From NCBI RefSeq assembly GCF_056712565.1, contig NZ_CM160072.1: 64,000 nucleotides of DNA; one strand, given 5' to 3'. The stretch's first letter is position 1; the number at the start of each line of letters is the position of its first letter. Of this stretch, positions 9,980 through 28,592 are shown piece after piece. The position numbers and the translations under genes are program-made. Under the pieces are notes generated by a model, which searched no databases, had not been told where the DNA came from, and worked only from the letters and a program-made list of their open reading frames with translations.

Positions 9980-9985
9980 AGCGAG

Positions 9986-11163: not shown

Positions 11164-11179
11164 ATGTCCTTTTCCTGTA

Positions 11180-12674: not shown

Positions 12675-14515
12675 GATCACCACCTACATAGGAGGTGTTT
12701 TAAAATTGATCGAGTAGGAGGCGGGATCACTCCCGCCGTCCTCTCACACCACCGTACATGCGGCTCCGCATACGGCGGTTCATGTTAACACTGGAACTGC
12801 CTCTGCTGTTCCAGCAGTGATATCAGACCCTGCCTGCTGAACCACGCATTCTTTATCGCCTGATTCATATGGCTTGACTCTGAGTTCCACCATGGCCCGT
12901 GGTTGTTGTACGCTGAGATCATCGCCCTGTCCTTACTCAGTCCTGCTCTTTGCAGGTTCTTTGCCCGGGTTAGCGGTCTCTTCCACTGCCGCTACAACAA
13001 GCAACGCAGTTTCCGTTTGATCCAGCCATCCAGCTCCTCCAGCACTCCTCTGACCTCCGTCAGCCTGAAGTAGCTTATCCATCCACACAGCACTGGTGTC
13101 AGAGCATTGATTGTCGCTTTCACTGATTTGCTCCGGTTTCCCGTCGTCAGACTGTGGACTTTCTCCTTCAGCCTGTTCACGCTCGTCAGGGCTATCTTCA
13201 GCTTCGCCTGTTTGTGCCATGTCACACTGTACCCGAGGAACTTCCGATCCCACGGGCGCGCCACCGCGCTCTTCTTCTCATTCACCTTCAGTTTGTTCTC
13301 CACGAACGCCCTGATGTTCTTCAGCAGATGGTCGCCCGCTTTCCGGCTGCTTACGTAGATGTTGCAGTCGTCTGCGTAGCGGCAGAAGCTGTGTCCACGA
13401 CGCTCCAGTTCTTTATCCAGTTCATCCAGCAGGATGTTCGACAGTAACGGCGACAGTGGGCCGCCCTGCAGCATGCCCGCCTGCCGTTTCTCCCTTTGCC
13501 CGTCTTTAACCATTTCCGCTTTCAGGTAGCGGCGTATCAGTCACAGCACCCGCCTGTCCTTTATCGTTCTGGCCAGACGCGTCATCAGGAGTCTGTGATC
13601 CACCCGGTCGAAGAACTTCTCCAGATCCATATCCACCACCCACCGTTTGCCACCCCGTATGTAACGCTGTGCCTGTTGCACCGCCTGCTGGATAAGCCTG
13701 TCCACCACCGTCGGGATGCCTGAGGTTCTCACGCCGCCATCCGGCTTCGGGATATCCATCCGGCGTATTGTCCGCGGCTGGTAGTTTCCGTCAATCAATG
13801 CCTGCCTGACGCTGCGCCAGTTCTTCTTCAGCCACGGTTTCAACTCCGCCACGCTGAGGTTATCCACCCCCGCCGTGCCTTTGTTTTCCACCACGCGCTG
13901 ATAAGCCAGCATCAGGTTTTCTCTCGTTATCACCGCTTCCATCGTCAGCGGCACTTCCGCTTTCGTTTGCCCACCCGCCGCCGTGCTGATTTCAGCGCCA
14001 TCATGCAGCCCTGACGGATACTGTCCGTCTCCTCTGCCGCTGGTCGCAGTGGCCTGCGCTTGTGCTTCATTAATCATCATCGGGTTCGGATGTCCTAATC
14101 ACAGTTAATCATGTTCGGCCCTTCATGCTGCCGGTTTTGCAGCACTACTACGGCGTCGGCTGACTTCTGCCGCCCCATCCCGGCGCCTCACGGCGCCGGT
14201 AGCACACTGGCAGGGCGACAGATCTCCCGGGGTAATTCACGCGACTTTCCTGCTTATGCCTGTCGGCTTTACGTCACAGCGTTCCGTGTGAGTATCGGGC
14301 TTTGGTGATTAGTGCCACCTTACCCTGCTGCGCCGCCTTAACCGCTTCCTGTTCGTCAGGCCAGCATTTTGCATCCAGCTTCCTTCAGATTTCACCTCGC
14401 GATGAACACCCTTGCCTTCCGCTAACACTTCCCCTCACCGGGTGTGTGGAGGACTTTCACCTCTTAGTCGTTCTTCTGCCACCACAGTTGAAGAACAGCG
14501 CCAGTCACGGCGCAC
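12675..14515 (-). mobile_element. Group II intron (~1.8 kb) inserted just downstream of the microcompartment operon terminator; ends approximate
   Basis: Minus-strand GTGCG at 14515..14511 8-9 nt after the terminator T-tract; RT/maturase ORF inside; domain V-like hairpin at ~12745..12775 (CCGTATGCGG / CCGCATGTACGG with 2-nt bulge) and GNRA-capped helix after it. Confidence 0.65.
12784..14080 (-). pseudogene. Group II intron reverse transcriptase/maturase, disrupted by one frameshift (~13515-13540) and one in-frame TAG (12992-12994)
   Basis: RT blocks 0-2 in ORF 13541..14080 (AGVDNLSVAEL, IPKPDGGVRTSGIPTVVDRLIQQA, DMDLEKFFDRVDH); RT4-5 in ORF 12992..13513 (QGGPLSPLLSNILLD, FCRYADDCNIY); maturase tail continues in the same frame past the TAG (QWKRPLTRAKNL...LISLLEQQRQFQC). 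Confidence 0.7.
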
Positions 14516-14519
14516 ATAA

Positions 14520-14552
14520 CAAAAAGCCAGCAGGCAGACACTGCTGGCTTTT
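14520..14552 (-). terminator. Rho-independent terminator of the microcompartment structural operon
   Basis: GCCAGCAG-loop-CTGCTGGC stem followed by TTTTTGTT on the minus strand, 14 nt after the stop at 14566. Confidence 0.6.
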
Positions 14553-14565
14553 TGTTATGGCGGGA

Positions 14566-15471
14566 TTAAAACAGGGGAACCAAGGTAAATAATCCAATGG
14601 TCGCCAACAGATTAATCATCGTGGTCATAATGGTGATGACCATCGCCGGCGGGTCAATATGTGTATCGCCGTGGATCAGGAAGATACGCGACATCAGTTC
14701 ACCCAATATCGCGCAAATTATGCCAACGATAGCAGCCCAAATCAGGCTACCTGATGGCACCGCTACCAACGCGGCAGGCAGCGAAATATGATGTGACACC
14801 GGTACCTGAGTATTGAAATGCAGGAAAATCAGTGAGAACGCGGAAATACCAAACGCCAGCAGCGCGCCGTTGCCGCCAAACTTCAGGCCTAAAAAGCCTG
14901 CCATCAAGCCAATACCCAAGCCCAGCACGGAAAGCTGCGGAATGCGGCTATGGTAAGGTATCCAGCACTTATCCTGCGGCGGATAGCAGTGACGAATTCC
15001 CTGCTCCGGTTTTCCAAACAGGCCAGTTTTACCGAAAACCAGACGCGAGACCACGCCAGAAATCACCACGGTTAGTGCCACGGTATCGGTCCAAGCATTG
15101 CCGGACGGGAAGGCCGGAATCTGGTTCAACCCCCAGGCGATGATGTAACCAACCGCCCCAAAAACCCCGCCTACCAGCAGCACATCGTAAGCCGCCAGAC
15201 CGCTCAACCCGGCAGTGATATCACGCCCGGAACCCAGCTTGCCTTTCTTCGCTGCATACGCCGTCGCCGCAACCCCAGCGGCAAAGCCGCCGGTGTGCGG
15301 GCCAAACAGTCCAAACGGAAAAGTAATAAAGTCCGATGATGCTCCGGTAATAATTTGCACTACCGTCATGGCGATAACCAGAAGCCCAACGAATTCAAAC
15401 GCCGCCAGCGCGCCAACAGCCGCACCAAATATGCCGCCGCCGAAGGCAACTACAATATCTAAGCTATTCAT
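14566..15471 (-). CDS. Gly-rich polytopic membrane protein, last gene of the microcompartment operon; putative substrate/product facilitator of unknown family
   Basis: 301 aa with ~8 hydrophobic Gly/Ala-rich segments; no NPA (aquaporin) or obvious EutH/FocA signature. Confidence 0.5.
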   Translation of the reverse strand: MNSLDIVVAFGGGIFGAAVGALAAFEFVGLLVIAMTVVQIITGASSDFITFPFGLFGPHTGGFAAGVAATAYAAKKGKLGSGRDITAGLSGLAAYDVLLVGGVFGAVGYIIAWGLNQIPAFPSGNAWTDTVALTVVISGVVSRLVFGKTGLFGKPEQGIRHCYPPQDKCWIPYHSRIPQLSVLGLGIGLMAGFLGLKFGGNGALLAFGISAFSLIFLHFNTQVPVSHHISLPAALVAVPSGSLIWAAIVGIICAILGELMSRIFLIHGDTHIDPPAMVITIMTTMINLLATIGLFTLVPLF

Positions 15472-15607
15472 CTAGCTTACCTCTGTAATTAAATCAAATG
15501 ACAATATAAGTAATGCAGATTGCTCTATATTTTTAAAATTGAAATAGTATTCATGCGTAACAAATAAACAAGCGCAGCATTTTTTCGCACTCTTATTACA
15601 TCTTTTA

Positions 15608-16525
15608 TTAACCGCCGATATGGCAGTTAAAACCTAAGGATTCAACCATTGCTTTTAACTCTGCCATTTGGGCTTCTTCGATACTTTTTGTATCGCCCAT
15701 CGGATACTGGCGACCAAGCAGATTATATTTATTTTCACCGAAGCTGTGATAAGGCAATAAGTGAATGGTATCGACGTTCTGCATCAGGCGGGCGAACTCC
15801 GCAATATTATGGATTTCCTGCGAATTGTCATTCACTCCTGGGATCACAGGAATACGCACAACCACTTTGGTTAAAAAGGAGATGCGCAGCAGATTCTCCA
15901 GAATCACTCTGTTATTCACGCCGGTGTTGCGCTCATGGATTTCCGGATCGATGGCTTTAATATCGGTCAGAGCAAGATCGACATAGGGAAATATCTCATC
16001 AATCACCGCTTTGGTGGTGAAGCCGCTTGTTTCAATAGCGGTGTGCCAGCCTTTGGCTTTACAGGCTTTAAGCAGCTCGCGGGCAAATTCCGGCTGCGCC
16101 AGCGGTTCACCACCGGACAGGGTAATCCCGCCGCCTGAACGCCGGTATAAATTCTCTTCTTTTTCCAGTTCGCGCATCACTGCCGTTACCGACATACGCT
16201 TGCCCTTCATTTCCAGCGCACGGGTAGGGCAAATCTCAGTACATTTCCCACACTGAATACAGCGGTCGCGATTGATAAACCAGGCATTAGTAGTGGAAAG
16301 AGCCTGTTGTGGGCAAGCATCAATACATTTTCCACAGCGGATGCAATCATTCTTTTTAAATAATAACTCTGGGCTGTGACGTTGTGATTCAGGATTACTA
16401 CACCATTTGCAGGACAGCGGGCAGCCTTTAAAAAAAGGAATGGTTCGAATGCCTGGACCATCATGCAAAGAATAGCGTTGAATATTAAATATGACGCCTT
16501 CGGTTTCGTACTCAACTTTATTCAT
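15608..16525 (-). CDS. Glycyl-radical enzyme activating enzyme (radical SAM, with ferredoxin-like insert)
   Basis: GCPLSCKWCSNPE radical-SAM CxxxCxxC site near the N-terminus, plus two additional Cys clusters (CIRCGKCIDACP, CIQCGKCTEICP) typical of non-PFL activases. Confidence 0.85.
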   Translation of the reverse strand: MNKVEYETEGVIFNIQRYSLHDGPGIRTIPFFKGCPLSCKWCSNPESQRHSPELLFKKNDCIRCGKCIDACPQQALSTTNAWFINRDRCIQCGKCTEICPTRALEMKGKRMSVTAVMRELEKEENLYRRSGGGITLSGGEPLAQPEFARELLKACKAKGWHTAIETSGFTTKAVIDEIFPYVDLALTDIKAIDPEIHERNTGVNNRVILENLLRISFLTKVVVRIPVIPGVNDNSQEIHNIAEFARLMQNVDTIHLLPYHSFGENKYNLLGRQYPMGDTKSIEEAQMAELKAMVESLGFNCHIGG

Positions 16526-16633
16526 AACATCACTCTATATTTACCAGATGAATTACCTTTTCAGATAAAAGTAACAACCAGAAGTCGTGGAGAAAGTAAC
16601 GGGCTATATATTGATACATAGCCCGTCTGGTAT

Positions 16634-19186
16634 TTACGACAGTTGTTGCTCAGTACGGCTGATTATGTCGTCCTGAACTTCTTTCGCTAAAACTACCCAC
16701 TGGGCGCTATAGCCCGCAACGCGTACCACCAGATCCTGATGTTGCTCAGGATTTTTCTGGGCTTCGATCAAAGTGTTGCGGTCGATAACGTTAAATTGAA
16801 CGTGCATCCCTTTCTTATCGAAGTAGTGACGTATCAGGCCGCTGAAGTTGCGCAGACCGTTCTCGCCAGCCAAAGAAGACGGCAGGAATTTCTGATTATA
16901 GAGCGTACCGTTGGAGGCGATAAAGTGATCCAGTTTGGCAACTGAGTTGGCTGCGGCGGTTGGGCCAAGGGTGTCTTTACCCTGACGTGGAGATACGCCA
17001 TCCGCCAACGGCTCTTTCGCCAGACGGCCATCCGGCAGTGCGGCAACGTCTTTACCAAACAGCACGTTCGCAGACACCGGATAGATACCAGCCTGGAACT
17101 GGCCACCGCGCGGGTTGGTATATTTCTCAACTTCCTGGCAGTAGATCAGCGCACATTTACGCGCTACTAAATCCACGTCATCGATGTCGTTACCGAAGCA
17201 CGGTGTGTTTTCCAGAATACGACGGATCTCCTCGTGACGGGACATAGTGCCGGATTGCACCGGTGCTGCACTGCCGGAAGTCAGCTGGCGATAAACTTCG
17301 TTTTTAATCGCTGCCGGATCCAGCGCGCCATGCTGTTCAATGATGCGTTTCACCACATCGTAGATATCCTGCTCGTTGAGCGAGGATTTCGCCGCTGGAG
17401 TGTGCGGGTTCGCACCCACCGGATAACCGAAGTTGGCGTCCAGTGCGCTTTTCAGTTCGCTCAAAGACAGTTTACGATCTTCGAATACCTGTTTCTGGAT
17501 GGCATAGACGGAGTCGCCGGTATCGGCTACGCCGAATGCTTGCGGCCCAGTAAAGTTGTAAATCGCCCCGCCTTCCTGGAGAGATTTACCACGGCCGATA
17601 CAGTCGTCGACCAGTGCTGATAGGAACGGCAGCGGGCAGCGTTCGCCGTGGGCAATATCCACGCTGTTACAGGCTTCAACCAGTTGATGAACGAAGTGCG
17701 CCATCTGTTTCTGGAACGCGGTGTAGAAGTCCTCCATGCTGGTGAACTGAGTCAGTTCGCCAGTCACTGGGCCTAGCTGTTTATTGCCAACGCGACCGTT
17801 GTTCAGGGTGATTTCCAGCACTTTTGCAACGTTAAAGAACGCGGCGTCATGCCAGCCCTCGGTGCGATGCGGTGCCTGCGGCTCTACGCAGCCGATGATA
17901 CAGTAATCACGCGCATCACGCAGCGAAATGCCACGGTTCTGCAGCGCCGGGATGATTACTTCATCGTTGTACATTGCCGGAACGCCCAGGCCCATACGCA
18001 CCAGCTCGCAAGCGCGATACAGAAACTCATCCGGAGTACCCTGCCATACGCGGATTGAGAAGGATGGCTGCGGCAGACGCACATGGGCAGTCGCTTCCAT
18101 ACACATGTAGCTCAGATCGTTAGTTGCGTCGCGACCGTCTTCTGTCTGGCCGCCACAGCACAGGTTCTGGAACACTGCGTAACCGGCAAACGCCTGGGCA
18201 GAGACTTCGTCACGCGTTTTGTTAATGTCGTTAAGCTTGATCCAGCAGCAATCCACCAGTTCCTGCGCGAATTCACGCGAGATAGATTTGTCCGACTCCA
18301 GATACGGGTACATATACTGGTCGAAACGCCCCGGGGAGATAGAATGACCGCTGGATTCAATCTGTAACATGCTCTGAATAAACCAGAATGTCTGGCATGC
18401 TTCCCAGAATGTGGTAGCACCGTATTCCGGCACGCGAGTACAGTTTTGAGCAATCTGCTCCAGTTCGCGTTTACGGGTCGGATTGCTCTCCTGCTGCGCC
18501 AGACGGGATGCTTCTTCAGCGTAACGATGGGCGAAACGGATCGCTGCGTTATAACTGATCAGCACCGCATTATAGAACTGTTCTTTCTTTATATATCCTG
18601 GTTCAGTGCGATCTAATGATTCCAAGGCACGGCTAACTTCATTAATGATACCACGGAAACCAATTTTCAGCACTTTACCGTAGTCAACACTGACATGACC
18701 GACGCCCCCGAAGAAGTAGTTACCAACAGTGAATACACCGCTCGCCATACTCTCTTTAGTGCCTTCTGACATGTAAGATGCCGCCAGAGCACTGGTAGTT
18801 TTACCCGGCCAGTATTTAAATGCTTCATGAAGCTCCTGAGCAGTCTTTTTCGGGATAACAAACGGGTCGGCAATACGGTGTTCCATAGTCTCAAACTCTT
18901 TTTCCACCCAGTCGTAGGAGAACTCAGGGCAGATTTCAGTTGAGCGAGGATTAATAGTTACCGCTCCAACGATTAATTCGTCTGGGCGAATTGTTACCGG
19001 TAATTGGTTAAAGATTTTTTCCACCACTTTAGCACGACGCATAATCGCGGGCAGTTGTTCTGTTTCTTTATATGCTTCGGTTGCTAACACCGCGCGTTCT
19101 GATTCCACATACGGCTTCGCCGTCAGGATCATATTTCTCAGTCTTACAACACGGTCTGTCGGATTAGAAAAGCCTTTCTCTAACAT
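16634..19186 (-). CDS. Glycyl radical enzyme, 850 aa; most likely B12-independent 1,2-propanediol dehydratase (choline TMA-lyase not excluded)
   Basis: C-terminal glycine-radical motif RVAGYSA; active-site GCVEP loop; size and neighbours (activase, PduL, PduP-like, kinase, Fe-ADH, shell genes) fit the dehydratase/lyase class rather than PFL. Confidence 0.85.
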   Translation of the reverse strand: MLEKGFSNPTDRVVRLRNMILTAKPYVESERAVLATEAYKETEQLPAIMRRAKVVEKIFNQLPVTIRPDELIVGAVTINPRSTEICPEFSYDWVEKEFETMEHRIADPFVIPKKTAQELHEAFKYWPGKTTSALAASYMSEGTKESMASGVFTVGNYFFGGVGHVSVDYGKVLKIGFRGIINEVSRALESLDRTEPGYIKKEQFYNAVLISYNAAIRFAHRYAEEASRLAQQESNPTRKRELEQIAQNCTRVPEYGATTFWEACQTFWFIQSMLQIESSGHSISPGRFDQYMYPYLESDKSISREFAQELVDCCWIKLNDINKTRDEVSAQAFAGYAVFQNLCCGGQTEDGRDATNDLSYMCMEATAHVRLPQPSFSIRVWQGTPDEFLYRACELVRMGLGVPAMYNDEVIIPALQNRGISLRDARDYCIIGCVEPQAPHRTEGWHDAAFFNVAKVLEITLNNGRVGNKQLGPVTGELTQFTSMEDFYTAFQKQMAHFVHQLVEACNSVDIAHGERCPLPFLSALVDDCIGRGKSLQEGGAIYNFTGPQAFGVADTGDSVYAIQKQVFEDRKLSLSELKSALDANFGYPVGANPHTPAAKSSLNEQDIYDVVKRIIEQHGALDPAAIKNEVYRQLTSGSAAPVQSGTMSRHEEIRRILENTPCFGNDIDDVDLVARKCALIYCQEVEKYTNPRGGQFQAGIYPVSANVLFGKDVAALPDGRLAKEPLADGVSPRQGKDTLGPTAAANSVAKLDHFIASNGTLYNQKFLPSSLAGENGLRNFSGLIRHYFDKKGMHVQFNVIDRNTLIEAQKNPEQHQDLVVRVAGYSAQWVVLAKEVQDDIISRTEQQLS

Positions 19187-19234
19187 ATAAAACTCCCGAA
19201 TATATTTTGTTAACCTTGCGGAGATGCCAGGGTA

Positions 19235-19810
19235 TTAATGAATAATGCTAGTGCCCATTTGAGTAATAAAGTGACGTAATATTGCTGGATGCCCCATCCA
19301 GGTAGTCGCGGTTATTAAATTACCATCCACAATGGCTTCATCATCTGCGGCAGTGACCCACTGGCCACCCGCCATTTCCACTTCCGGTTTTACCGTAAAA
19401 TATCCCGTCAGTTTCCGGCCTTTTAATACCCCAGCAGCGGCCAGAATTTGTGGGCCATGACAAATTGCAGCAACAGGTAATGTTAAATTCATCGCGTAAT
19501 GCACGATATCCAATACTGACTTATTTAATCGCAAGTATTCCGATGAACGCCCACCAGAAATATAAACACCACTATATTCCTGTAACCTTATGTCATCAAA
19601 TGATGCAGTTAATCTAAAAAGATGTCCGGGTTTTTCGGTGTAGGTCTGATCACCTTCAAAATCATGAATCGCGGTTTTAATAAACTCGCCGGTACGTTTT
19701 CCCGGACACACTACATCCACTCTGAAACCTAACATGTTTAATGCCTGCCATGGCACCATGACTTCATAGTCTTCAGAGAAATCGCCTGTGATAAGTAATA
19801 TCTTCTTCAT
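19235..19810 (-). CDS. DJ-1/PfpI-family protein (class I glutamine amidotransferase-like fold)
   Basis: MKKILLITGDFSEDYE start and the conserved nucleophile elbow AICHGP; the ORF track start at 19945 is an upstream extension overlapping the preceding gene. Confidence 0.7.
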   Translation of the reverse strand: MKKILLITGDFSEDYEVMVPWQALNMLGFRVDVVCPGKRTGEFIKTAIHDFEGDQTYTEKPGHLFRLTASFDDIRLQEYSGVYISGGRSSEYLRLNKSVLDIVHYAMNLTLPVAAICHGPQILAAAGVLKGRKLTGYFTVKPEVEMAGGQWVTAADDEAIVDGNLITATTWMGHPAILRHFITQMGTSIIH

Positions 19811-19820
19811 AAGCGGACTC

Positions 19821-20120
19821 TCAAAACTGGTTATCGTCTTCCTCAATGATTCGCATGGCTTCATGCACCGCCGCGACTTCGCCAAAAATGGCCAATGTGG
19901 TGATATGCTGAGGGCAACTGCCAAAGATTTCTGATACCACCACATTGGCGCTTTTACTGGCTACGTCGGCATAAAAATAGAGATCCGGAACCGGCAGTAT
20001 TAACAAACCAATGGCGTCGATGCGAATCAAATCCAAACGCGAACGAAACTCCCCGGGCATACGCCGTTTCAACATAGCCAAAATATCCGGGGTCGGTGCG
20101 TTTATGATTCGTTTTTTCAT
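19821..20120 (-). CDS. Circularly permuted BMC-H shell protein (PduU/EutS-like)
   Basis: IDAIGLLILPVP...ADVASKSANVVV...LAIFGEVAAVHEAM parallels the PduU/EutS core (AIGILTITP...CDIATKSGAV...GAVVLTGDVSAVEYAL). Confidence 0.65.
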   Translation of the reverse strand: MKKRIINAPTPDILAMLKRRMPGEFRSRLDLIRIDAIGLLILPVPDLYFYADVASKSANVVVSEIFGSCPQHITTLAIFGEVAAVHEAMRIIEEDDNQF

Positions 20121-20143
20121 CTTTAAGTCACCCTTCGCGATAG

Positions 20144-21661
20144 TTAGCGAATATTCAGCGCTTCAACCATTACACAGCGACGACGGCGTGCAAACGAACG
20201 CGCTGACGTAAGTCCCTCGCCGGTCGGTCCGGCAATCGTAAAGGTGGCATGCCCTTCACCGCCCACCCCCAGCCCTGCATAAGAGGGACCATTTTTAACA
20301 AAGATGGTGGTCTGGATCAGGCGCGCCATTTTGGTCAGCTTTTCGACGTTGGTGGAGTGCATAACCGCGGTATGACGATTGCCGTGCTCCACTTTCACCG
20401 CCAGCTCAATGGCTTCATCAACATTGTCTACGCGCACCACCGGCAGGACCGGCATCATCAGCTCATGCACCACAAACGGATGTGTTTTCTCAGCCTCAAT
20501 TAAGATGACTTTGATATCGTCGCCAACCTGGATTCCCAGTTGTTGCAGGATATAGCGCGCATCTTTGCCGACAAAGGCGGTATTCGGCCCAGTGCCTTTT
20601 TCATTAAGCACCAACGATTGCAGTTGTTGACTTAACTTCTTATCGCACAACAGATAGGCACCGCTTTTCTTCATGCAGTGAATCAGATAGTCCGCTACCT
20701 GGTTCACAACAATCACCTCTTTTTCCGCCACGCACGGCAGGTTGTTGTCGAAGCTACAGCCCTTAATGATGTCGCGGGCTGCTTTTTCGATATCCGCCGT
20801 TTCATCTACCACAGCTGGCGGGTTACCTGCGCCTGCACCAATCGCTTTTTTACCTGATGACATCACGGTTTTCACGATGGCTGGACCGCCAGTCGCTACC
20901 AGCATGTTGATACGTGGGTCGTTGATCAGGACGTTGGTATTGTCGATGGACGGTTTGGTCACCGTTACCACCATGTTCGCCGGTGCGCCCAACTGGGCAA
21001 GCTTGTTGTTGATCAGCTCAACCGCGTACAGCGACACTTTGCGCGAGCGCGGATGTGGACTGAACACCACAGTGTTGCCTGCCGCCAGCATGCCTATGCT
21101 GTTGTTGATAATGGTTTCGGTCGGGTTAGTCGTTGGTGTAATCGAACCAATCACTCCGAACGCAGAGTATTCGATCAACGTTAAACCCCCGTCTCCGGAA
21201 ACCGCGCTGGTGGTCAGATCTTCGATACCTGGCGTTTTCAGCGCTGCGACGCGGTTTTTGATCAGTTTGTCCTCGTAATTCCCCATGCCGGTCTCTTCCA
21301 CCGCCATACGGGAAAGGGCACACAGCACATCTTCCTGCAGGAAGACATCGCGAATGCCATTGATAAACGAGGCGCGGTCTTGCATAGAACAGTGGCGATA
21401 CTGTACCTGTGCCAAGACGGCGGCGGAAATCGCCTCATCCATGGTATCGAATGCTCCAGTGCTAGCATTCGCTACCTTCGCTACCTGAGAGATCGCACTG
21501 GCGTCGCGCACGGAAGAGTGCTGCGCCAACGCCTTAGCGACAATTTCATCCAACCCGTCGACCCGCGCTGCTTCTGACGTGGCGGGAGCTTCATCCGGTG
21601 TTGCTTTGGTGAATTTGCTCAGGATGGTCGAGACAGCCTGAGCGATTTCAATATCATTCAT
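20144..21661 (-). CDS. CoA-acylating aldehyde dehydrogenase (PduP/EutE-like) with N-terminal extension (putative encapsulation peptide)
   Basis: Aldehyde-DH fold with catalytic Cys region (NNLPCVAEKEV) and GxGxxG-like dinucleotide site; ~40 aa N-terminal extension before the catalytic core. Confidence 0.8.
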   Translation of the reverse strand: MNDIEIAQAVSTILSKFTKATPDEAPATSEAARVDGLDEIVAKALAQHSSVRDASAISQVAKVANASTGAFDTMDEAISAAVLAQVQYRHCSMQDRASFINGIRDVFLQEDVLCALSRMAVEETGMGNYEDKLIKNRVAALKTPGIEDLTTSAVSGDGGLTLIEYSAFGVIGSITPTTNPTETIINNSIGMLAAGNTVVFSPHPRSRKVSLYAVELINNKLAQLGAPANMVVTVTKPSIDNTNVLINDPRINMLVATGGPAIVKTVMSSGKKAIGAGAGNPPAVVDETADIEKAARDIIKGCSFDNNLPCVAEKEVIVVNQVADYLIHCMKKSGAYLLCDKKLSQQLQSLVLNEKGTGPNTAFVGKDARYILQQLGIQVGDDIKVILIEAEKTHPFVVHELMMPVLPVVRVDNVDEAIELAVKVEHGNRHTAVMHSTNVEKLTKMARLIQTTIFVKNGPSYAGLGVGGEGHATFTIAGPTGEGLTSARSFARRRRCVMVEALNIR

Positions 21662-21721
21662 CTTTAAATTCCTTACTACTCTTCATCTACCGACCGCGCC
21701 GCGTGCATCGTCATCAGATGC

Positions 21722-22507
21722 TTAGATATATGGCGTCGTGGTGGATTTAATTTCCACCGGATCTAACGTGGAGAGCAGTTGTAGACCGACTTCACGCGCG
21801 GCAATCACCGCCTGACGTACTGCACCGGAATCACCGGAGAAGGTGAAGATCACTTCGTTACTAAAGCTGGTGCCTTGCGACGGGCTGGCATAACCCACCG
21901 GGTCAATCACGGCGGATTTCGCCGCAGCGTCGGCAATCACTAGGCCAATCGCCGCAGGCGAGGCACAGGTCATCCCGAAGGATTTACCAATCGGCGCACC
22001 CAGCGCTTTATTCAGCGCGTAGCTGGCACGAGCGGTGTACTGGAATTCAAGATGTCCGGCTGACGAGCCATAAACGTCACCCATGGTGCGTTCAATTTCA
22101 GACAGCGCCACTTCAACCGCACGCCTGACGTCGGAAACATCAGACGCACCAAAAATAATTAAGCAACCGTGTCCGCCACCTCCTTCGGTATCGCGGGCCA
22201 GCTCAATAGAAATAATTTCGCTGTTGGTTGCTTTAATCGCTTCGTCAGCCGCAAAAATTTGCGGGCCTGCGCCAGTACGTGCGCCAAGAATACCGATAGA
22301 GCGATATTTCTTGTCGATATTCATGACTTCATGCAATTGATTATCAACATTGGCAATCACTAGGCCGATAGTGTGGCCCAACGCAGTGCCGACAAATTCC
22401 GTAATACCGCAACCAGCGAAATTTGCTGCTGTTTTAGCTTCCGGTGAGATATCGGTTTGTTTATTCATTACGTCAGATATAATCTGCTCAACAAGATTAT
22501 CTCTCAT
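21722..22507 (-). CDS. BMC-T tandem-domain shell protein (PduB/EutL-like)
   Basis: 261 aa with two BMC-like repeats, Gly-rich loops (TEGGGGHGCLIIFGAS) reminiscent of PduB. Confidence 0.75.
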   Translation of the reverse strand: MRDNLVEQIISDVMNKQTDISPEAKTAANFAGCGITEFVGTALGHTIGLVIANVDNQLHEVMNIDKKYRSIGILGARTGAGPQIFAADEAIKATNSEIISIELARDTEGGGGHGCLIIFGASDVSDVRRAVEVALSEIERTMGDVYGSSAGHLEFQYTARASYALNKALGAPIGKSFGMTCASPAAIGLVIADAAAKSAVIDPVGYASPSQGTSFSNEVIFTFSGDSGAVRQAVIAAREVGLQLLSTLDPVEIKSTTTPYI

Positions 22508-22528
22508 GATCAGTATCCTTTATTGTTA

Positions 22529-22810
22529 TTAACCGATAGCCTTCGGTAGAATTTTTTCCACCTCAATGTGTGGGCGTGGAATAACATGTACGGAGACCAG
22601 TTCTCCCACTTTACTCGCAGCAGCGGAGCCCGCATCTGTCGCGGCTTTCACTGCGCCAACGTCGCCGCGAACCATCACAGTCACCAAGCCGGAGCCGATT
22701 TTTTCATAACCCACTAGGGTCACGTTGGCAGATTTCACCATGGTATCTGCAGCTTCAATTGCAGAAACCAGACCTTTCGTTTCAACCATTCCTAATGCTT
22801 CTTGTTGCAT
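22529..22810 (-). CDS. BMC-H shell protein (PduA/EutM-like), ~93 aa
   Basis: [57 protein letters not shown] is the canonical BMC hexamer sequence; ORF-track start at 22861 is an upstream extension. Confidence 0.85.
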
Positions 22811-23094
22811 AACGACCTCAATATTTCCGATAGAAAGAAAACGTGCACAGAGGAATAGCAATCTACGGATTCACCCATGTGCATTAATTATTTAATTATC
22901 ATAATGCTAAGGTTATTCAGACAAAATGTTTTGCGCGTCAGTGGGACTATCTTGCTTTTGCATTCCCGCAATTGACAATAAAATCCACCCGAGGTTTGTA
23001 ATAAAAGATCTGCGTTTAAATTTCCTTGCAAAATAGCCCCGCTCTGAATAGCAATCATAATTACTGTTAAAACTGTCGTATTTTTGCCAATTAG

Positions 23095-24291
23095 TTATGC
23101 CGTGCGGGCAATCTCCGCTGCATCTATAGCAATCATTTTTTCTTCATTGGTTGGGATGACCGCAATCTTCGTGGTGTCGGTTTTAGAAATCAGTCCGCTA
23201 CGTCCGCCGAACAGCTGCTGGTTACGTTCTTTATCCAGTTCCAATCCCAGCGCCTGAAGGCGTTGCACGGTAAGTTCTCGAATTAACGCCGAGTTTTCGC
23301 CAATTCCACCGGTGAAAATCAGCGCATCGAAGCGTTTAAGCGAGGTCACGTGGCCGCCGATATGTCGTGCGAGACGATGTACTAACACGTCGATGGCTAA
23401 CGCTGCCCGTTCGTGGCCCTCATCACGCGCCTGCTGAAGGGTGCGGCAATCGCTGGATAAGCCGGAAATCCCCATTAGGCCGGACTGGTTATTGAGCATT
23501 TTGTACAGCGTGTCGAACGTTTGACCTGTGCGTTTCGCCAGATATGCGACGACACCAAAATCAAGATCCCCGCAGCGCGTGCCCATTACCAGCCCTTCCA
23601 GCGGGGTCATACCCATTGAGGTGTCAATGCTCGTGCCGTTTTGCACCGCACATAGCGATGAACCGTTGCCCAAGTGGGCAATCACGATGCCATGATCCGC
23701 CGGGTCGAGATCTAGTGATGCAAGCGCCTCGGCGGCAATATAGCGGTGAGATGTTCCGTGAAAGCCGTAACGTCGCACCATATAATCTTGCTGGAACTCC
23801 AGCGGGATCGCATAGGTGTAAGCAGCCGGAGACAAGGTCTGGTGGAACGCAGTATCGAACACCGCAATATGCGGCAACGCGGGCAACAGAGCCCGAGCCG
23901 CTTCAATACCAATCAGGTTGGCAGGGTTATGCAAAGGGGCCAGCACCGACAGCGCGCGGACTTTTTCGATCACATCATCGGTAACCAGTACTGATCTTTT
24001 GAAGTCGCTGCCGCCATGAGCCACGCGGTGCCCAACGGCGTTGATGGCTTCCAACAGTTGCTGTTCGTCGAGCTTCGCGAAGAGCACTTTGAGCGCATGC
24101 TGATGGCTGGCGTCATCCAGCGCGACAGTGGATTTATGGCCGTCTCGGTCTTTAAACGTTATGACAGCATGATCAATACCCAGTCGTTCCGCTAGGCCCG
24201 ACAGCAACGGCTGATCTGCATCCTGAGGAATGACGGAGAATTTCATTGATGAGGAACCACAATTAATCACTAATACACAAGCTAAAGACAT
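23095..24291 (-). CDS. Acetate/propionate kinase (AckA/PduW/TdcD family)
   Basis: LVINCGSSSMKF N-terminus and downstream ASKHGxT-family blocks (GFHGTSHRY, HLGNGSS); ORF-track start at 24402 overlaps the upstream gene, true ATG at 24289-24291. Confidence 0.85.
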   Translation of the reverse strand: MSLACVLVINCGSSSMKFSVIPQDADQPLLSGLAERLGIDHAVITFKDRDGHKSTVALDDASHQHALKVLFAKLDEQQLLEAINAVGHRVAHGGSDFKRSVLVTDDVIEKVRALSVLAPLHNPANLIGIEAARALLPALPHIAVFDTAFHQTLSPAAYTYAIPLEFQQDYMVRRYGFHGTSHRYIAAEALASLDLDPADHGIVIAHLGNGSSLCAVQNGTSIDTSMGMTPLEGLVMGTRCGDLDFGVVAYLAKRTGQTFDTLYKMLNNQSGLMGISGLSSDCRTLQQARDEGHERAALAIDVLVHRLARHIGGHVTSLKRFDALIFTGGIGENSALIRELTVQRLQALGLELDKERNQQLFGGRSGLISKTDTTKIAVIPTNEEKMIAIDAAEIARTA

Positions 24292-24319
24292 GATGCCCCC
24301 TGAAATGGACTGCAAAAAA

Positions 24320-24817
24320 TTAACGGGTTGTTGTGAGGGGATAACGCAGAACGCTAAACTGCGCCATCGCCTGGCGGGCGATGAGCATATCTTCCTCAAC
24401 ACTGCCGCCGCTGATGCCGATGCCGCCTAGTAAGCGCCTGCCCGACCAGCAGGGAAAACCACCGCCGAAGCAGCAGATATCTTTTTCTTTCTCAAGGCCG
24501 TACAAATCACCACCCGGCTGTACCAGCGTTGCCAGTTCGTGAGTTGGCATTTTGAGAGCTACCGCGGTCCAGGCCTTTTGTGGTGCCAAGGTATGGCTGA
24601 CCAGCAGGGCGTTATCCATGCTGAAGAAAAAACGCTGCTGACCGCAGGCATCCACTAGGCTAAAAACGATCGATACATTGCTGGACTGTGCTATTTCCCG
24701 GACCAACTTTGCCAGCAGTTCACTGTCCTCCAGGCTCAGCGACATCCGGAGTTCCGGTAACTGCGTGGCAATAGCCTCGTTAATCCAGTTGTCGAGTGAA
24801 GCCTCATTCGCAGACAT
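24320..24817 (-). CDS. GlcG/DUF336 (PduO C-terminal-like, haem-binding family) protein
   Basis: 165 aa with the Gly-rich C-terminal block (GGGFP...GGIGISGGSVEEDMLIA) typical of DUF336/GlcG. Confidence 0.6.
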   Translation of the reverse strand: MSANEASLDNWINEAIATQLPELRMSLSLEDSELLAKLVREIAQSSNVSIVFSLVDACGQQRFFFSMDNALLVSHTLAPQKAWTAVALKMPTHELATLVQPGGDLYGLEKEKDICCFGGGFPCWSGRRLLGGIGISGGSVEEDMLIARQAMAQFSVLRYPLTTTR

Positions 24818-24844
24818 AAGTATTCCTCAGCGTACGCGCCGCTA

Positions 24845-25114
24845 TTAACCGTTAAGTTCGAGCGAGTCGACGATACCCACCACGGCAGCGTCAATCACCG
24901 AGTGATCTTTGTTGTTGCTCATACGCGCCGAACTGCCGGTGGTGATGATCACAATCTCTCCATTGCCCGCGCCGACAGTATCAACTGCCACCTGGGCATG
25001 AACAGTCGGCTGATAGTTTTCATCGAGCCGCGCCACTATCAGCAGTTTTGAGCCATTCAGCGAGGCGTGTTTGGTGGTGGAAACCAATGCGCCAGTAACT
25101 TTAGCGAGGTACAT
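24845..25114 (-). CDS. BMC-P vertex (pentamer) protein, EutN/PduN/CcmL family
   Basis: 89 aa; MYLAKVTGALVSTTKH...GSKLLIV...VAVDTVGAGNGEIV matches the EutN/CcmL fold. Confidence 0.8.
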   Translation of the reverse strand: MYLAKVTGALVSTTKHASLNGSKLLIVARLDENYQPTVHAQVAVDTVGAGNGEIVIITTGSSARMSNNKDHSVIDAAVVGIVDSLELNG

Positions 25115-25125
25115 ATTTCCTCCGG

Positions 25126-25830
25126 TTAACCATGGATAACAGTGAGATTACGCCGCTGGATTTCATCTCTGGCAGCAGGGGTAATCAGCGTGTCGCTCTC
25201 AATGCGCAGCACTGTGCCAATGGTCAGTAGGCGGATATCGCTCTGGGTGATTAAACGTTTTTTACCGGCTACTGTCAGGGTGGATTGGCTTCCTTGCACC
25301 GACTTGACATGGGCTGCACGTTTACCGAAAAGCGTAATGCCATAGCTCTCTAGGACCTGAGCGTAACCTTCCAGACAAGACAGCAGTGGCATCGGTAATT
25401 CGCTATCGACGCATTGTTGATGCAGCGTGGCGATAATCTGTTTACGGTGCTGTAACGTCTGAAATACAGTTTCACAGGCCAGATTATCGCGAATGCCCAG
25501 CGCAATTTTGCTCATGCTGTTGACAGAGAGCGCAGGCAGATAGAGCACCTCATAGTGAGGCGGCGATCTGTCAAATCCAGCACGAGAACCACGCTGAATT
25601 AGCGCATCCATGCAGACAGATTTCAGCGCCGACTGGCTGGCGCTGTGAGAAAAATTTACCCACAACTGATAACCCGCCAGCTCAAGCGCCTCAAGGCAGT
25701 TCAGCGTTTCCGGCAGCGAGGAGATATCCTCACCAGTCACCACTACGCAGACATTTTTCTGCGCGACGGATTGTGCCAACACTTCAGCGATGACCCGGTC
25801 CAGCAGTTGCGATAAGGTTTGATTGTCCAT
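25126..25830 (-). CDS. Microcompartment-associated protein of unknown function (possibly PduM-like or other accessory protein)
   Basis: ORF embedded between shell and EutJ-like genes with overlapping stop/start; no confident motif. Confidence 0.4.
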   Translation of the reverse strand: MDNQTLSQLLDRVIAEVLAQSVAQKNVCVVVTGEDISSLPETLNCLEALELAGYQLWVNFSHSASQSALKSVCMDALIQRGSRAGFDRSPPHYEVLYLPALSVNSMSKIALGIRDNLACETVFQTLQHRKQIIATLHQQCVDSELPMPLLSCLEGYAQVLESYGITLFGKRAAHVKSVQGSQSTLTVAGKKRLITQSDIRLLTIGTVLRIESDTLITPAARDEIQRRNLTVIHG

Positions 25831-25834
25831 TGAT

Positions 25835-26593
25835 TTACCCCTGGTCCGCATTCATGGCGATGCCTAATGGTGTGACCAATAGTGGCTCTGCCGAAGGAAT
25901 CACATTTTTACCGGTTTGTTTACTGAACACGTTGGCAAACTGGCTGAAGCTGCTCGCGCCACCTACCAAATAAATATTTTTTACCTGCTGGGTAGCGAAC
26001 CATCCCGACACCAAGCTGGCCATTTTCTGGGCCACCGGTAGCACCAGGGTAAAGACCTGCGCTTCCTGCCCGTTTTTTTTCATTTCTTCCGCCTCGGCAT
26101 AAGGCAAGCCCAGCGCGCCAGCGATCACCAACTTCATATGGCTTCCACCGGTGGGCTCATCGGCACTGAACGTCACTTTACCGCTTTTCAAAATGCTCAT
26201 GCCGGTGGTGCCTCCTCCGACATCCACCACCGCCCCGTTTTTAATATTCAGCGCGCTGGCAGCGGCTACCGGTTCATCTAGTACTTGGGTCACGATAAAA
26301 CCCGCCAACTCCACTACGTTGACGATCACTTTTGTGTTGCCTTCAGAGATCCCCGGTGGGACTGCGATCGCCGCGCGCTCCAGCGTGCAGCCCTGTTTCT
26401 GTTCAAGAATTTGTTTGAGACGTGCTACTACCCGGCTGGCGGTCAGGTAATCCACCACCACGCCGTCTTTCACCACATTGGAGGGATACATTACCCCTGC
26501 CACCGGCTGGTTATCTTCATCCAGCACCACGATTGCGATATTGGCGGTACCGAGATCCCCCCCACCTTCAACGCGCCGGAGTAGGGCCGACAT
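25835..26593 (-). CDS. EutJ-like actin-fold ATPase/chaperone
   Basis: GGDLGTANIAIVVLD... and VVDVGGGTTGMSI... match the phosphate-1/phosphate-2 motifs of the Hsp70/actin fold as in EutJ. Confidence 0.7.
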   Translation of the reverse strand: MSALLRRVEGGGDLGTANIAIVVLDEDNQPVAGVMYPSNVVKDGVVVDYLTASRVVARLKQILEQKQGCTLERAAIAVPPGISEGNTKVIVNVVELAGFIVTQVLDEPVAAASALNIKNGAVVDVGGGTTGMSILKSGKVTFSADEPTGGSHMKLVIAGALGLPYAEAEEMKKNGQEAQVFTLVLPVAQKMASLVSGWFATQQVKNIYLVGGASSFSQFANVFSKQTGKNVIPSAEPLLVTPLGIAMNADQG

Positions 26594-26647
26594 TCGCCGC
26601 TGTCAATCAGCGCGGCCAATTCGTGAAATCGGCAGTTTTCGGGGCTG

Positions 26648-27334
26648 TTAGCCATGGCGCGCAGCCTGTTTTATGCCGCGAACGGTATCGCCATTACGCA
26701 GACCGACGCCGTTAGCTTCTTCCATATCAATATGCAGTTCCAGCACTGCATCCGCCGTGACGCGTACCACTACATGGCTGAGCACACCACCGCGCGGACC
26801 GTTTGTTTGCACATCGATTTCCATTCCGTCATGCAGGCCGTGCAGTTCGGCTTCTTCGGGCGAGATATGGATATGGCGCCAGGCGACAATCATGCCGTTG
26901 TGTTTCACCACCCGCCCTTTCGGACCGATGATTTCAATGCCCGGCGAATCCAGCAGATCCCCCGACATGCGCACCGGAGCTTTAGTGCCCAGCGCAAAGC
27001 CGTCGGCCACAGAGATTTCCACCTGCGTGGCATTACGCAGTGGCCCTAACACGCGCACTTTGTTGAGCTCGCCTTTTGGCCCGCGCAGCGTCACCATCTC
27101 TTCGGCGGCATACTGACCGGGCTGTTTCAACGCTTTAGAACGGGTTAGCGTAGAGCCGTAGCCAAACAGAATGTCCATATCTTCACGGCACAGATGAACA
27201 TGGCGGTTGGACACGCCCACCGGAATATTCAGCGCGACAGGCGCGGCAGCAGGCGCTGCCGTTTTTTTACTGGTGGCAAGTTCCTGCAAAATTTGTTGGG
27301 TAATCCACTCGGCTTGTTGTTCGGTGTAATTCAT
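26648..27334 (-). CDS. pduL: Phosphate acyltransferase PduL (phosphotransacylase)
   Basis: Duplicated PduL/EutD-type motifs (GVSNRHVHL and AWRHIHISPEEA; GPKG/GPRGGV). Confidence 0.8.
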   Translation of the reverse strand: MNYTEQQAEWITQQILQELATSKKTAAPAAAPVALNIPVGVSNRHVHLCREDMDILFGYGSTLTRSKALKQPGQYAAEEMVTLRGPKGELNKVRVLGPLRNATQVEISVADGFALGTKAPVRMSGDLLDSPGIEIIGPKGRVVKHNGMIVAWRHIHISPEEAELHGLHDGMEIDVQTNGPRGGVLSHVVVRVTADAVLELHIDMEEANGVGLRNGDTVRGIKQAARHG

Positions 27335-27473
27335 AATGGGTACGACCTGATTATTGGGTTATCTTATGGGTAATGGGCGTCTAACGATCAGGATAGGGAG
27401 TAACGACGCCCGGTTTTTGTTTATCAGCAGGACTTTTTTGACTGCTTCACGGAGGCTGAACAAAGTTATCCAG

Positions 27474-28592
27474 CTAGCCGGTAATCAGGTCGATCAACCC
27501 TTCGACATCATGCGTCGTCACCTGCCGCGGGTTCGACGCGGTACAACCGTCGGCCAGCGTCGAATTCACCAGTGCGCTGCGCAACTCGATGATTTTTGCA
27601 CGGTCGATGCCCAGTTCGCTGAGAGTGACGGGGATGCAGAAATGGCGATTGATCTGGCGGATCTCCTGAGTCATCAGCGCGATGGCCTGCTCCGGTACCG
27701 CATGGTCAATGCCTATGATTTGCGCGCAACGGTGATAGCGATCGCGGGTTTCAGTGCTGGCCCGTTTGCTGTTGAAGTCGATGACAATCGGCAGCAGCAT
27801 GGCGTTAATTTTGCCATGAGGAATATGCAGCATCCCGCCGATGGCGTGTGCCATGCCGTGTACCAACCCCAGCCCGGCGGAGTTAAATGCCATGCCTGCC
27901 ATACAGGAGGCATTGTGCATGTGGGTGCGCGCCGCAATGTCTTTTTCGTCGTTAAACACCTGCGGCAGATAGCGCCAGGTCAACGCGATGGCTTTTTCCG
28001 CCAGCGCATCGCTAAAGTCATTTGAGCCAGTAGAGACAAAGGCTTCAATGGCATGGGTCAGCACGTCCATGCCGGTATCTACCGCGACATGACGCGGCGC
28101 GGTTAACACTAGGTTAGGATCGAGAATGGCGATTTCCGGCACCAGTTGCCCGGAGATCAACGGATATTTGCGGCCATTTTGCGGATCAGAGATGATCGCG
28201 TAGGACGTCACTTCAGAGCCGGATCCGCTGGTTGTGGGAATAGCAATGAGATCGATTTGATGATCTCCAAAATACTCTTCCAATGTGACTTTAATTCCTT
28301 TCGCAGCGTCCAGCGACGAGCCGCCGCCGAGGGCGATAATAACGTCGGGCTTAAAGGCTTTAAAACGCGCCGCGCCGGAAGTCAGAATATCAATATCTGG
28401 ATCCGGAGTAACCTCACCGAAAATGCATACCGATGCCTCAGGCATATGGCTTATTAAATAACGAGTTTTACCTGATGACATCATAAAATCATCGGTGACA
28501 ATACCGACTCGTTTATTATTAAATTGGCATAGAGAGGTTATTGCCTCTTCACCAAAATAAATTTTGGGGCACGAAAAATAATAGCGGGCCAT
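27474..28592 (-). CDS. Iron-containing alcohol dehydrogenase (PduQ/EutG-like), first gene of the operon
   Basis: Fe-ADH signatures GGGSSLDAAK and the metal-site His-rich region (HGMAHAIGGMLHIPHG). Confidence 0.85.
   Translation of the reverse strand: MARYYFSCPKIYFGEEAITSLCQFNNKRVGIVTDDFMMSSGKTRYLISHMPEASVCIFGEVTPDPDIDILTSGAARFKAFKPDVIIALGGGSSLDAAKGIKVTLEEYFGDHQIDLIAIPTTSGSGSEVTSYAIISDPQNGRKYPLISGQLVPEIAILDPNLVLTAPRHVAVDTGMDVLTHAIEAFVSTGSNDFSDALAEKAIALTWRYLPQVFNDEKDIAARTHMHNASCMAGMAFNSAGLGLVHGMAHAIGGMLHIPHGKINAMLLPIVIDFNSKRASTETRDRYHRCAQIIGIDHAVPEQAIALMTQEIRQINRHFCIPVTLSELGIDRAKIIELRSALVNSTLADGCTASNPRQVTTHDVEGLIDLITG

Follow-up and report, generated by a model that had tools for sequence, protein, structure and literature searches.

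We examined a 64,000-nucleotide stretch of DNA (NCBI RefSeq assembly GCF_056712565.1, contig NZ_CM160072.1; hereafter the window) and within it the interval 14566-28592, which contains 15 intact, co-directional open reading frames (ORFs) on the minus strand. We put at about 0.95 the probability that this interval corresponds to genes grpA-grpO of the locus grp (glycyl radical propanediol) known from extraintestinal Escherichia coli, a bacterial microcompartment (BMC) locus of glycyl radical enzyme microcompartment type 3 (GRM3) for the B12-independent anaerobic fermentation of 1,2-propanediol. The gene content and order, the identity to the characterised locus and the active-site signature are those of grp. 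The complete locus, grpA-grpS, occupies window 8238-28592 (~20.4 kb, minus strand), and all 19 of its ORFs are intact and free of internal stops. Labels were tested against curated NCBIfam models, Pfam and solved structures in the PDB, and the genes of the interval were assigned as follows.

27474-28592, minus strand: grpA, iron-containing alcohol dehydrogenase (Fe-ADH) with a 1-propanol dehydrogenase role in NAD+ regeneration; 372 amino acids (aa), intact; Fe-ADH family matches below every equivalog cut-off; RefSeq name GrpA.
26648-27334, minus strand: grpB, PduL-type phosphotransacylase; NF011652 phosphate propanoyltransferase, 257 bits against a cut-off of 209.
25835-26593, minus strand: grpC, EutJ-family (actin/Hsp70-fold) putative chaperone; TIGR02529 EutJ, 384 bits against a cut-off of 152.
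25126-25851, minus strand: grpD, flavoprotein-family protein; weak Flavoprotein PF02441 match (E=5.4e-6), faint PDU_like C terminus, TIGR02536 eut_hyp below cut-off.
24845-25114, minus strand: grpE, pentameric vertex protein (BMC-P); EutN/CcmL family matches.
24320-24817, minus strand: grpF, DUF336/HbpS-like (GlcG-like) protein; PF03928, E=3.3e-29.
23095-24291, minus strand: grpG, propionate kinase, the ATP-yielding step; NF009045, 694 bits against an equivalog cut-off of 580.
22529-22810, minus strand: grpH, hexameric shell protein (BMC-H); EutM/CsoS1-type BMC matches.
21722-22507, minus strand: grpI, PduB-type tandem-domain shell protein (BMC-T); NF011944 PduB, 423 bits against a cut-off of 173.
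20144-21661, minus strand: grpJ, CoA-acylating propionaldehyde dehydrogenase with an N-terminal extension; NF011927, 733 bits against a cut-off of 403.
19821-20120, minus strand: grpK, GrpU-type permuted BMC-H shell protein; PDB 4olp ("GrpU microcompartment shell protein"), E=1.4e-48, full length.
19235-19810, minus strand: grpL, DJ-1/PfpI family protein, 191 aa from the annotated start; TIGR01382, 153 bits against a cut-off of 139.
16634-19186, minus strand: grpM, 850-aa glycyl radical enzyme (GRE) of the PFL2/glycerol-dehydratase family; TIGR01774, 788 bits against a cut-off of 678.
15608-16525, minus strand: grpN, radical S-adenosylmethionine (SAM) glycyl-radical activating enzyme; TIGR02494, 415 bits against a cut-off of 174.
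14566-15471, minus strand: grpO, DUF7973 (PF25928) membrane protein with multiple transmembrane (TM) segments, putative diol permease; hydrophobic segments, and homologues that carry PF25928.

Several of these products were characterised further. The NF011652 profile begins at residue 37 of GrpB, which leaves an N-terminal extension of ~36 aa. The best solved relatives of GrpJ are the aldehyde dehydrogenase structures from the GRM3 locus of Rhodopseudomonas palustris BisB18 (5jfl/5jfn, 710 bits). GrpK carries the pore motif GSCPQH, an instance of the Fe-S pore motif G-X-C-P-Q-N/H of GrpU-type shell proteins, and is 52% identical to the 99-aa GrpU-like gene product of the same R. palustris locus. 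No relative of GrpD was found in the PDB; its weak PF02441 match fits the "flavoprotein" in the list of GRM3 ancillary genes considered below.

The remainder of the locus lies downstream of grpO, beyond an intron remnant.

12709-14406, minus strand: group II intron, degenerate and co-oriented with the grp genes, between grpO and grpP; Rfam RF02001 139.7 bits, RF01998 73.8 bits and RF00029 48.5 bits, all above gathering.
11180-12442, minus strand: grpP, sensor histidine kinase with a PocR sensory domain; Pfam PocR (E=2.2e-44), His_kinase and HATPase_c.
10108-11163, minus strand: grpQ, response regulator with an AraC-type helix-turn-helix output; receiver-domain and AraC/PocR C-terminal matches; RefSeq name GrpQ.
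8828-9979, minus strand: grpR, methionine adenosyltransferase, SAM supply for the activase; TIGR01034 metK, 588 bits against a cut-off of 309.
8238-8783, minus strand: grpS, BMC-H shell protein with a ~100-aa C-terminal extension, the fifth shell protein; single Pfam BMC domain (residues 5-80 of 181) and PDB BMC-H matches.

An earlier note on this DNA had described tightly packed minus-strand genes in the interval, all of which proved intact; it counted 16, and there are 15, as in its own list. Its functional labels (Fe-ADH, PduL, EutJ, BMC-P, DUF336, kinase, BMC-H, BMC-T, aldehyde dehydrogenase, DJ-1, GRE, activase and membrane protein) were borne out by the curated models. The gene that it listed as an unknown is present as grpD, with the weak flavoprotein match given above, and its permuted BMC-H protein was recovered with the label "PduU-like" refined to GrpU-type on the evidence of GSCPQH and PDB 4olp. 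The operon that it delimited at 14566-28592 is real; its limits are not, as the locus runs on to window 8238 through grpP, grpQ, grpR and grpS. The PocR two-component system that it placed downstream was found in the domains of grpP and grpQ.

The interval was searched by megablast against all complete RefSeq E. coli genomes (n = 5426) and counted where at least 80% of it was present. It was found in 536 of them (9.9%), nearly all at 99% identity or higher. E. coli ATCC 11775, like many other strains, matched at 100% across all 14,027 bases, and in that genome RefSeq names the genes grpA-grpO, for example "glycyl radical diol dehydratase GrpM" and "propanediol utilization system aldehyde dehydrogenase GrpJ". 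Chance can be set aside, as the stretch is 100% identical to an annotated operon and 536 complete E. coli genomes contain it. The match to ATCC 11775 extends over window 1-45844, apart from two substitutions and an unrelated ORF at 31754-33190 whose length differs by 252 bp. Fermentation of 1,2-propanediol via grp is reportedly found in more than 10% of the ECOR collection, and the measured 9.9% agrees with this.

The grp locus of uropathogenic E. coli CFT073, whose genetic characterisation is due to Lundin et al. (2020, J Bacteriol 202:e00017-20), has the same order grpA-grpS, and there, too, an intron remnant separates grpO from grpP. RefSeq accessions are shared with the window locus by GrpA, B, C, E, G, I, J, K, L, M, O, Q and S, whereas GrpD, F, N, P and R of CFT073 stand under different accessions, so that their sequences differ. 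The grpH gene is intact in the window; in the CFT073 reference record (stretch 21812-22095) it contains two extra single bases and is flagged by RefSeq as frameshifted. These insertions could be errors of the 2002 assembly or real changes. Deletion of grpH in CFT073 is said to abolish propanediol use, which would favour a sequencing error in the record, and eight of the 19 single-gene deletions reportedly abolish fermentation.

GrpM is identical to its CFT073 counterpart at 850 of 850 residues. Its best solved relative is the GRM3-type propanediol dehydratase of Raoultella planticola (PDB 9RCO-9RCR; 1662 bits, 90% identity over the aligned 792 residues), which has been reported to be 75% identical to the R. 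palustris enzyme and was crystallised with 1,2-propanediol in the active site after removal of the encapsulation peptide. The R. palustris GRM3 enzyme is specific for 1,2-propanediol in vitro. GrpM aligns from residue 1 with the glycerol dehydratase of C. butyricum, leaving no N-terminal extension, and carries an internal insertion of ~64 aa that is absent from that enzyme; it starts at residue ~587, and the aligned core resumes at ~649-651. The crystal construct of R. planticola differs from GrpM in lacking this insertion, the deleted segment corresponding to GrpM residues ~594-648. An internal insertion of ~60 aa is a hallmark of GRM3/4/5 enzymes, and we infer that in GrpM it is a putative encapsulation peptide.

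To read the active site, five sequences were aligned: GrpM, its Rahnella orthologue, C. butyricum glycerol dehydratase, Roseburia propanediol dehydratase (residues 12-839) and one Klebsiella CutC. The CutC row was numbered in D. alaskensis numbering from an anchor at the Cys loop and validates itself, in that Tyr208, Asp216, Thr334, Phe395, Cys489, Glu491, Thr502, Tyr506 and Gly821 coincide with the published residues. The sites compare as follows.

CutC site 208: GrpM Phe158; CutC Tyr208; glycerol dehydratase Tyr158; Roseburia propanediol dehydratase Phe160.
CutC site 216: GrpM His164; CutC Asp216; glycerol dehydratase His164; Roseburia propanediol dehydratase His166.
CutC site 334: GrpM His281; CutC Thr334; glycerol dehydratase His281; Roseburia propanediol dehydratase His283.
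CutC site 395: GrpM Phe339; CutC Phe395; glycerol dehydratase Tyr339; Roseburia propanediol dehydratase Phe344.
Thiyl Cys: GrpM Cys433; CutC Cys489; glycerol dehydratase Cys433; Roseburia propanediol dehydratase Cys438.
Catalytic Glu: GrpM Glu435; CutC Glu491; glycerol dehydratase Glu435; Roseburia propanediol dehydratase Glu440.
CutC site 502: GrpM His446; CutC Thr502; glycerol dehydratase His446; Roseburia propanediol dehydratase His451.
CutC site 506: GrpM Phe450; CutC Tyr506; glycerol dehydratase Phe450; Roseburia propanediol dehydratase Phe455.
Propanediol dehydratase site Val696: GrpM Val704; CutC Ile (~700); glycerol dehydratase Ser642; Roseburia propanediol dehydratase Val696.
Glycyl radical: GrpM Gly825; CutC Gly821; glycerol dehydratase Gly763; Roseburia propanediol dehydratase Gly817.

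GrpM residues H164, S282, F339, C433, E435, D447, V704 and G825 all equal the corresponding residues of the Roseburia propanediol dehydratase. In comparison with glycerol dehydratase, exactly two pocket positions of GrpM differ, Phe339 and Val704, and both match the Roseburia enzyme. These two positions reportedly determine specificity at C3 of the substrate (a methyl group, or contact with the C3 hydroxyl of glycerol). By sequence, GrpM has the propanediol-type pocket. 1,2-Propanediol dehydratase activity is predicted for it, with indirect support from the identical protein of CFT073 and from the R. planticola structure in which 1,2-propanediol is bound.

On every point that can be read from sequence, the locus agrees with GRM3. 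A GRE and its cognate activase, GrpM and GrpN, each above the cut-off of its model, are encoded beside shell genes, with BMC-H, BMC-T and BMC-P in the same operon. The core aldehyde-processing set is represented by the acylating aldehyde dehydrogenase GrpJ, the alcohol dehydrogenase GrpA and the PduL-type phosphotransacylase GrpB. The ancillary set of GRM3 comprises an acetate kinase, a peptidase and a flavoprotein, together with a EutJ homologue, a SAM synthetase, a two-component pair and a DUF336 protein (Axen et al. 2014), and counterparts of all seven are present, in that order GrpG, GrpL, GrpD (by its weak Pfam match), GrpC, GrpR, GrpP with GrpQ, and GrpF. The GRM3 enzyme architecture, with the internal insertion and without an N-terminal extension, was likewise found. 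A literature search linking GRM3 with E. coli CFT073 returned no printed GRM subtype for the grp locus, and the subtype given here is therefore derived from gene content.

Other class labels were tried and set aside. For GRM5, the fucose/rhamnose type, there is no fuculose-phosphate aldolase, PduS or tandem-domain PduT among the 19 grp genes. For the B12-dependent Pdu type, there is no PduCDE, reactivase or B12 recycling gene among them, and the signature enzyme is a GRE. The label GRM3b (GrpU present, no PduS or PduT) was dropped, since a GrpU-like gene is present in the GRM3 locus of R. palustris BisB18 as well.

The alignment to CutC and to glycerol and propanediol dehydratases had been proposed in the earlier note, and neither the Asp nor the Tyr positions of CutC were matched in it. 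The conclusion of that note, a GRM3-like, B12-independent 1,2-propanediol locus rather than a cut locus, is upheld by the CFT073-identical GrpM, the failed CutC model, the pocket and the full ancillary set. Its argument from a "PduU-like" shell protein does not hold, because GrpU-type shell proteins occur in ~85% of choline GRM1 loci and do not discriminate between substrates. Nor is the locus notable in itself, as had been suggested: grp is already named, annotated and genetically characterised, and no new biology is added here.

Three other explanations were weighed. The locus might be a cut-type choline microcompartment (GRM1 or GRM2), with the GRE as a choline trimethylamine-lyase: GrpM, a GRE eliminase, contains the shared loop with Cys and Glu and has a Phe where CutC has Phe395, GRM1 loci often encode GrpU-type shell proteins, and some E. 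coli strains, such as 536, carry a cut microcompartment. However, GrpM scores 555 bits against the NCBIfam CutC equivalog TIGR04394, which has a cut-off of 1050, and is 35% identical to Klebsiella CutC as compared with 59% to C. butyricum glycerol dehydratase and 53% to the Roseburia enzyme. Of the CutC site residues only Phe, Cys, Glu and Gly are common to both; the essential Asp216 is replaced by His164, and Thr502, Tyr506 and Tyr208 by His446, Phe450 and Phe158. GrpM lacks the trimethylammonium-binding Asp and so is not a CutC. The lack of an N-terminal extension and the presence of the insertion of propanediol-type enzymes argue the same way, as does the identical enzyme of CFT073, whose locus is, according to papers that cite the published study, induced by 1,2-propanediol and used for it. 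A choline locus is, on this evidence, vanishingly improbable. Another small polyol, glycerol or ethylene glycol, is an unlikely physiological substrate. GrpM is slightly closer overall to the C. butyricum glycerol dehydratase than to the Roseburia enzyme, ethylene glycol binds to the 90%-identical R. planticola enzyme in crystals and protects it in proteolysis assays, and a GrpO homologue lies in a glycerol-catabolism cluster of a spirochaete. Against this, Phe339 and Val704 of GrpM match the propanediol enzyme and not Tyr339 and Ser642 of glycerol dehydratase, and GrpM has the insertion and stands in a BMC operon, unlike glycerol dehydratases of the C. butyricum DhaB1 type. Further, the R. 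palustris GRM3 enzyme gave no product from glycerol, the effects of glycerol on the R. planticola enzyme are of very low affinity, a PduF is encoded at the GrpO position in Rahnella, and the inducer of the locus is 1,2-propanediol according to papers that cite the CFT073 study.

The locus might also be a decaying, non-functional island remnant, disrupted by an intron and lying amid insertion sequence (IS) elements and pseudogenes. A degenerate group II intron does separate grpO from grpP, and IS1 and IS3 copies as well as truncated genes are numerous in the island. Nevertheless, all 19 grp ORFs are intact, the same intron sits at the same place in CFT073, whose locus functions according to the literature, and conservation at 99% or more in nearly all of 537 genome records argues for maintained function; we consider decay very unlikely. 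Some points do weigh against a 1,2-propanediol microcompartment as we describe it. The roles of GrpC, GrpD, GrpF, GrpK, GrpL and GrpO are only inferred; the R. planticola homologue binds ethylene glycol, so that 1,2-propanediol may not be the sole substrate; and the insertion site here is pheU as against selC in CFT073, so that the expression context could be different. The sequence itself holds nothing that contradicts a 1,2-propanediol metabolosome.

The physiology expected of this metabolosome is drawn from CFT073. Papers citing the 2020 study of that strain describe the cluster as 21 co-directional genes, which encode five shell proteins, a glycyl radical diol dehydratase and the enzymatic route from 1,2-propanediol to propionate and 1-propanol. 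Such papers also report that GrpP and GrpQ are needed for anaerobic induction by 1,2-propanediol and for the growth benefit, that deletion of either blocks induction, and that the GrpP/GrpQ regulator is linked to type 1 fimbria expression and bladder invasion. Growth on 1,2-propanediol, microcompartment dependence and GrpP/GrpQ regulation are taken for the window locus from this literature.

In the proposed pathway, GrpP, the PocR-domain kinase, and GrpQ, with its AraC-type output, would switch the locus on in response to 1,2-propanediol and anaerobiosis, and 1,2-propanediol would enter the cell, probably via GrpO, and from there pass into the shell. The shell would be built from GrpH (BMC-H), GrpI (PduB-type BMC-T), GrpE (pentamer), GrpK (GrpU-type Fe-S hexamer) and GrpS. 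The radical-SAM enzyme GrpN would place the glycyl radical on Gly825 of GrpM, using SAM from GrpR, and electrons may reach GrpN via GrpD and the Fe-S shell protein GrpK. A thiyl radical at Cys433 of GrpM would then start dehydration of the diol to propionaldehyde, and this toxic intermediate would be kept in the lumen and disproportionated. GrpJ would oxidise propionaldehyde to propionyl-CoA with formation of NADH, while GrpA would reduce it to 1-propanol and regenerate NAD+. Propionyl-CoA would be converted to propionyl-phosphate by GrpB, with recycling of CoA, and propionyl-phosphate to propionate and ATP by GrpG.

GrpO is the one component of the interval without an experimentally assigned function. 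Neither NCBIfam nor the PDB nor the Pfam-A copy used yielded a match to it; a homology search placed it in the recent family PF25928/DUF7973, with 1035 relatives. One homologue flanks the GRM3 locus of R. palustris BisB18. Another, in a spirochaete (contig 3226-4131), lies between a glycerol-3-phosphate-responsive (GlpP-like) antiterminator and a glycerol kinase, with a glycerol-3-phosphate dehydrogenase in the same cluster. The slot between antiterminator and glycerol kinase usually holds a glycerol facilitator gene. By analogy, members of DUF7973 may be small membrane facilitators for the uptake of diols and polyols that replace the aquaporin-type PduF and GlpF, a tentative proposal to which we give a little less than an even chance. 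This role for GrpO is suggested by the BisB18 GRM3 flank, the exchange with PduF in Rahnella and the slot in the spirochaete glycerol cluster. The spirochaete cluster suggests that DUF7973 transports small polyols in general. RefSeq already names GrpO a "permease", and only the mechanistic, family-level claim would be new; it is the sole mildly new inference of this analysis.

Comparison with other systems placed these features in context. The GRM3 loci of R. palustris BisB18 and Rhodobacter capsulatus share with grp the GRE, activase, aldehyde dehydrogenase, DUF336, EutN, EutJ and acetate/propionate kinase genes, as well as a PocR kinase with an AraC-output regulator, a SAM synthetase and a DUF7973 membrane protein. 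They differ in gene order and orientation, belong to alphaproteobacterial hosts and are chromosomal rather than carried on a tRNA-linked island. The Pdu system of Salmonella enterica acts on the same substrate through the same downstream pathway, with the roles of PduL, PduP, PduQ and PduW corresponding to GrpB, GrpJ, GrpA and GrpG, and has a PduB-type BMC-T and PocR-type sensing in common with grp. However, its dehydratase is the adenosylcobalamin-dependent PduCDE, in place of which grp has a GRE and a radical-SAM activase without B12 recycling genes, and its PocR domain is fused to the AraC regulator, whereas in grp it is fused to a histidine kinase. The GRM2 cut loci of E. coli 536 and Klebsiella are also GRE-based and share the core of aldehyde dehydrogenase, alcohol dehydrogenase and phosphotransacylase, but encode a CutC with Asp216 and an N-terminal extension of ~350 aa, and no BMC-T. 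GRM5 loci (Roseburia, Clostridium phytofermentans) are GRE-based as well and share both this core and a propanediol-type active site with grp.

Rahnella megaplasmids carry a syntenic grp-like locus with 88-89% identity in GrpM; in Rahnella victoriana it lies at 9575-24559 of the examined stretch, on a 723-kb megaplasmid. The Rahnella locus has PduF at the GrpO position, lacks grpL (DJ-1/PfpI) between the GrpU-type shell gene and grpM, and has the module of regulator, SAM synthetase and shell protein inverted relative to E. coli. In a further, distinct group, made up of Enterobacter, Kosakonia and Citrobacter plasmids, the encoded GRE reaches only 60% identity.

The intron between grpO and grpP retains ribozyme domains D1-D4 at 14118-14406 and D5/6 at 12709-12780. 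Its reverse transcriptase/maturase is split into ORFs at 13541-14080 and 12992-13513, which cover positions 2-85 and 168-348 of TIGR04416, with the middle missing. Members of this intron family were present in 1239 of the 5426 E. coli genomes, on chromosomes and plasmids, some of them with an intact ltrA.

Gaps between the grpA-grpO ORFs are mostly -17 to 139 bp. The exception is the 284 bp between grpG and grpH (22811-23094), before the major shell gene, which is unusually long for a tight operon; in Rahnella the corresponding gap measures 142 bp. The gap in the window matched no Rfam family, and its sole promoter-like match, at 22924-22895, is weak. The promoter scan was uninformative (21 sites against 18.9 expected). 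Terminator-like sites numbered 41 against 19.2 expected; most of those listed lie inside coding regions, and no conclusion was drawn from them. A Thr_leader match at 14457-14557 fell below gathering in Rfam (37.3 against 55) and was rejected as chance.

The surroundings of the locus are those of an integrase-associated tRNA-Phe island, as had been proposed, and contain the following features.

31754-33190, plus strand: hypothetical ORF, 478 aa, with a marginal PADLOC match as its only family match.
33322-37881, plus strand: complete QatABCD anti-phage system; each of the four proteins aligns with a PADLOC model over nearly the full length.
38434-40345, minus strand: CBASS-like defence pair, with a 442-aa oligonucleotide cyclase and a 191-aa 2TM/SLATT effector.
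43823-49340, plus strand: Orn/Lys/Arg-decarboxylase-family gene (789 aa) with two flanking basic amino acid/polyamine antiporters, bracketed by IS1.
54699-55964, minus strand: tyrosine-type island integrase, 421 aa, just inside the island beside pheU; RefSeq annotation and NF007246 integrase domain.
56162-56237, minus strand: tRNA-Phe (pheU), the island attachment site; found by ARAGORN and the only tRNA in the window.

In the matching genome, pheU is flanked by dicD-dsbD-cutA-dcuA-aspA. The best model for the 789-aa decarboxylase, which is the acid-stress cargo mentioned earlier for this island, was arginine decarboxylase, at 740 bits and thus well below the cut-off of 1167. The hypothetical ORF at 31754-33190 exceeds its counterpart in ATCC 11775 by 252 bp, and the CFT073 copy carries a frameshift flag; overlapping blast segments suggest that the length difference is a copy-number variation of an internal repeat. 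A cargo of ~45 kb, comprising the decarboxylase/antiporter block (99% identity), Qat, the CBASS-like pair and grp, is common to the window island and that of CFT073. In CFT073 this cargo is at selC (tRNA-Sec) behind a different integrase, whereas in the window strain it is at pheU. The two integrases had no nucleotide match, and the integrase-proximal gene is only ~90% identical between the two. Since both integrases and tRNA sites differ, this is a cargo block common to islands with different integration modules.

The value of these findings lies in a correct blind annotation and its small refinements, namely the pheU site as opposed to selC, the recognition of GrpK as GrpU-type and the family setting in which GrpO is placed. 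1,2-Propanediol is the end product of anaerobic fucose and rhamnose breakdown. Through the grp locus, about one in ten sequenced E. coli, mostly of extraintestinal and uropathogenic lineages, gain a B12-independent fermentation of this compound with a yield of ATP.

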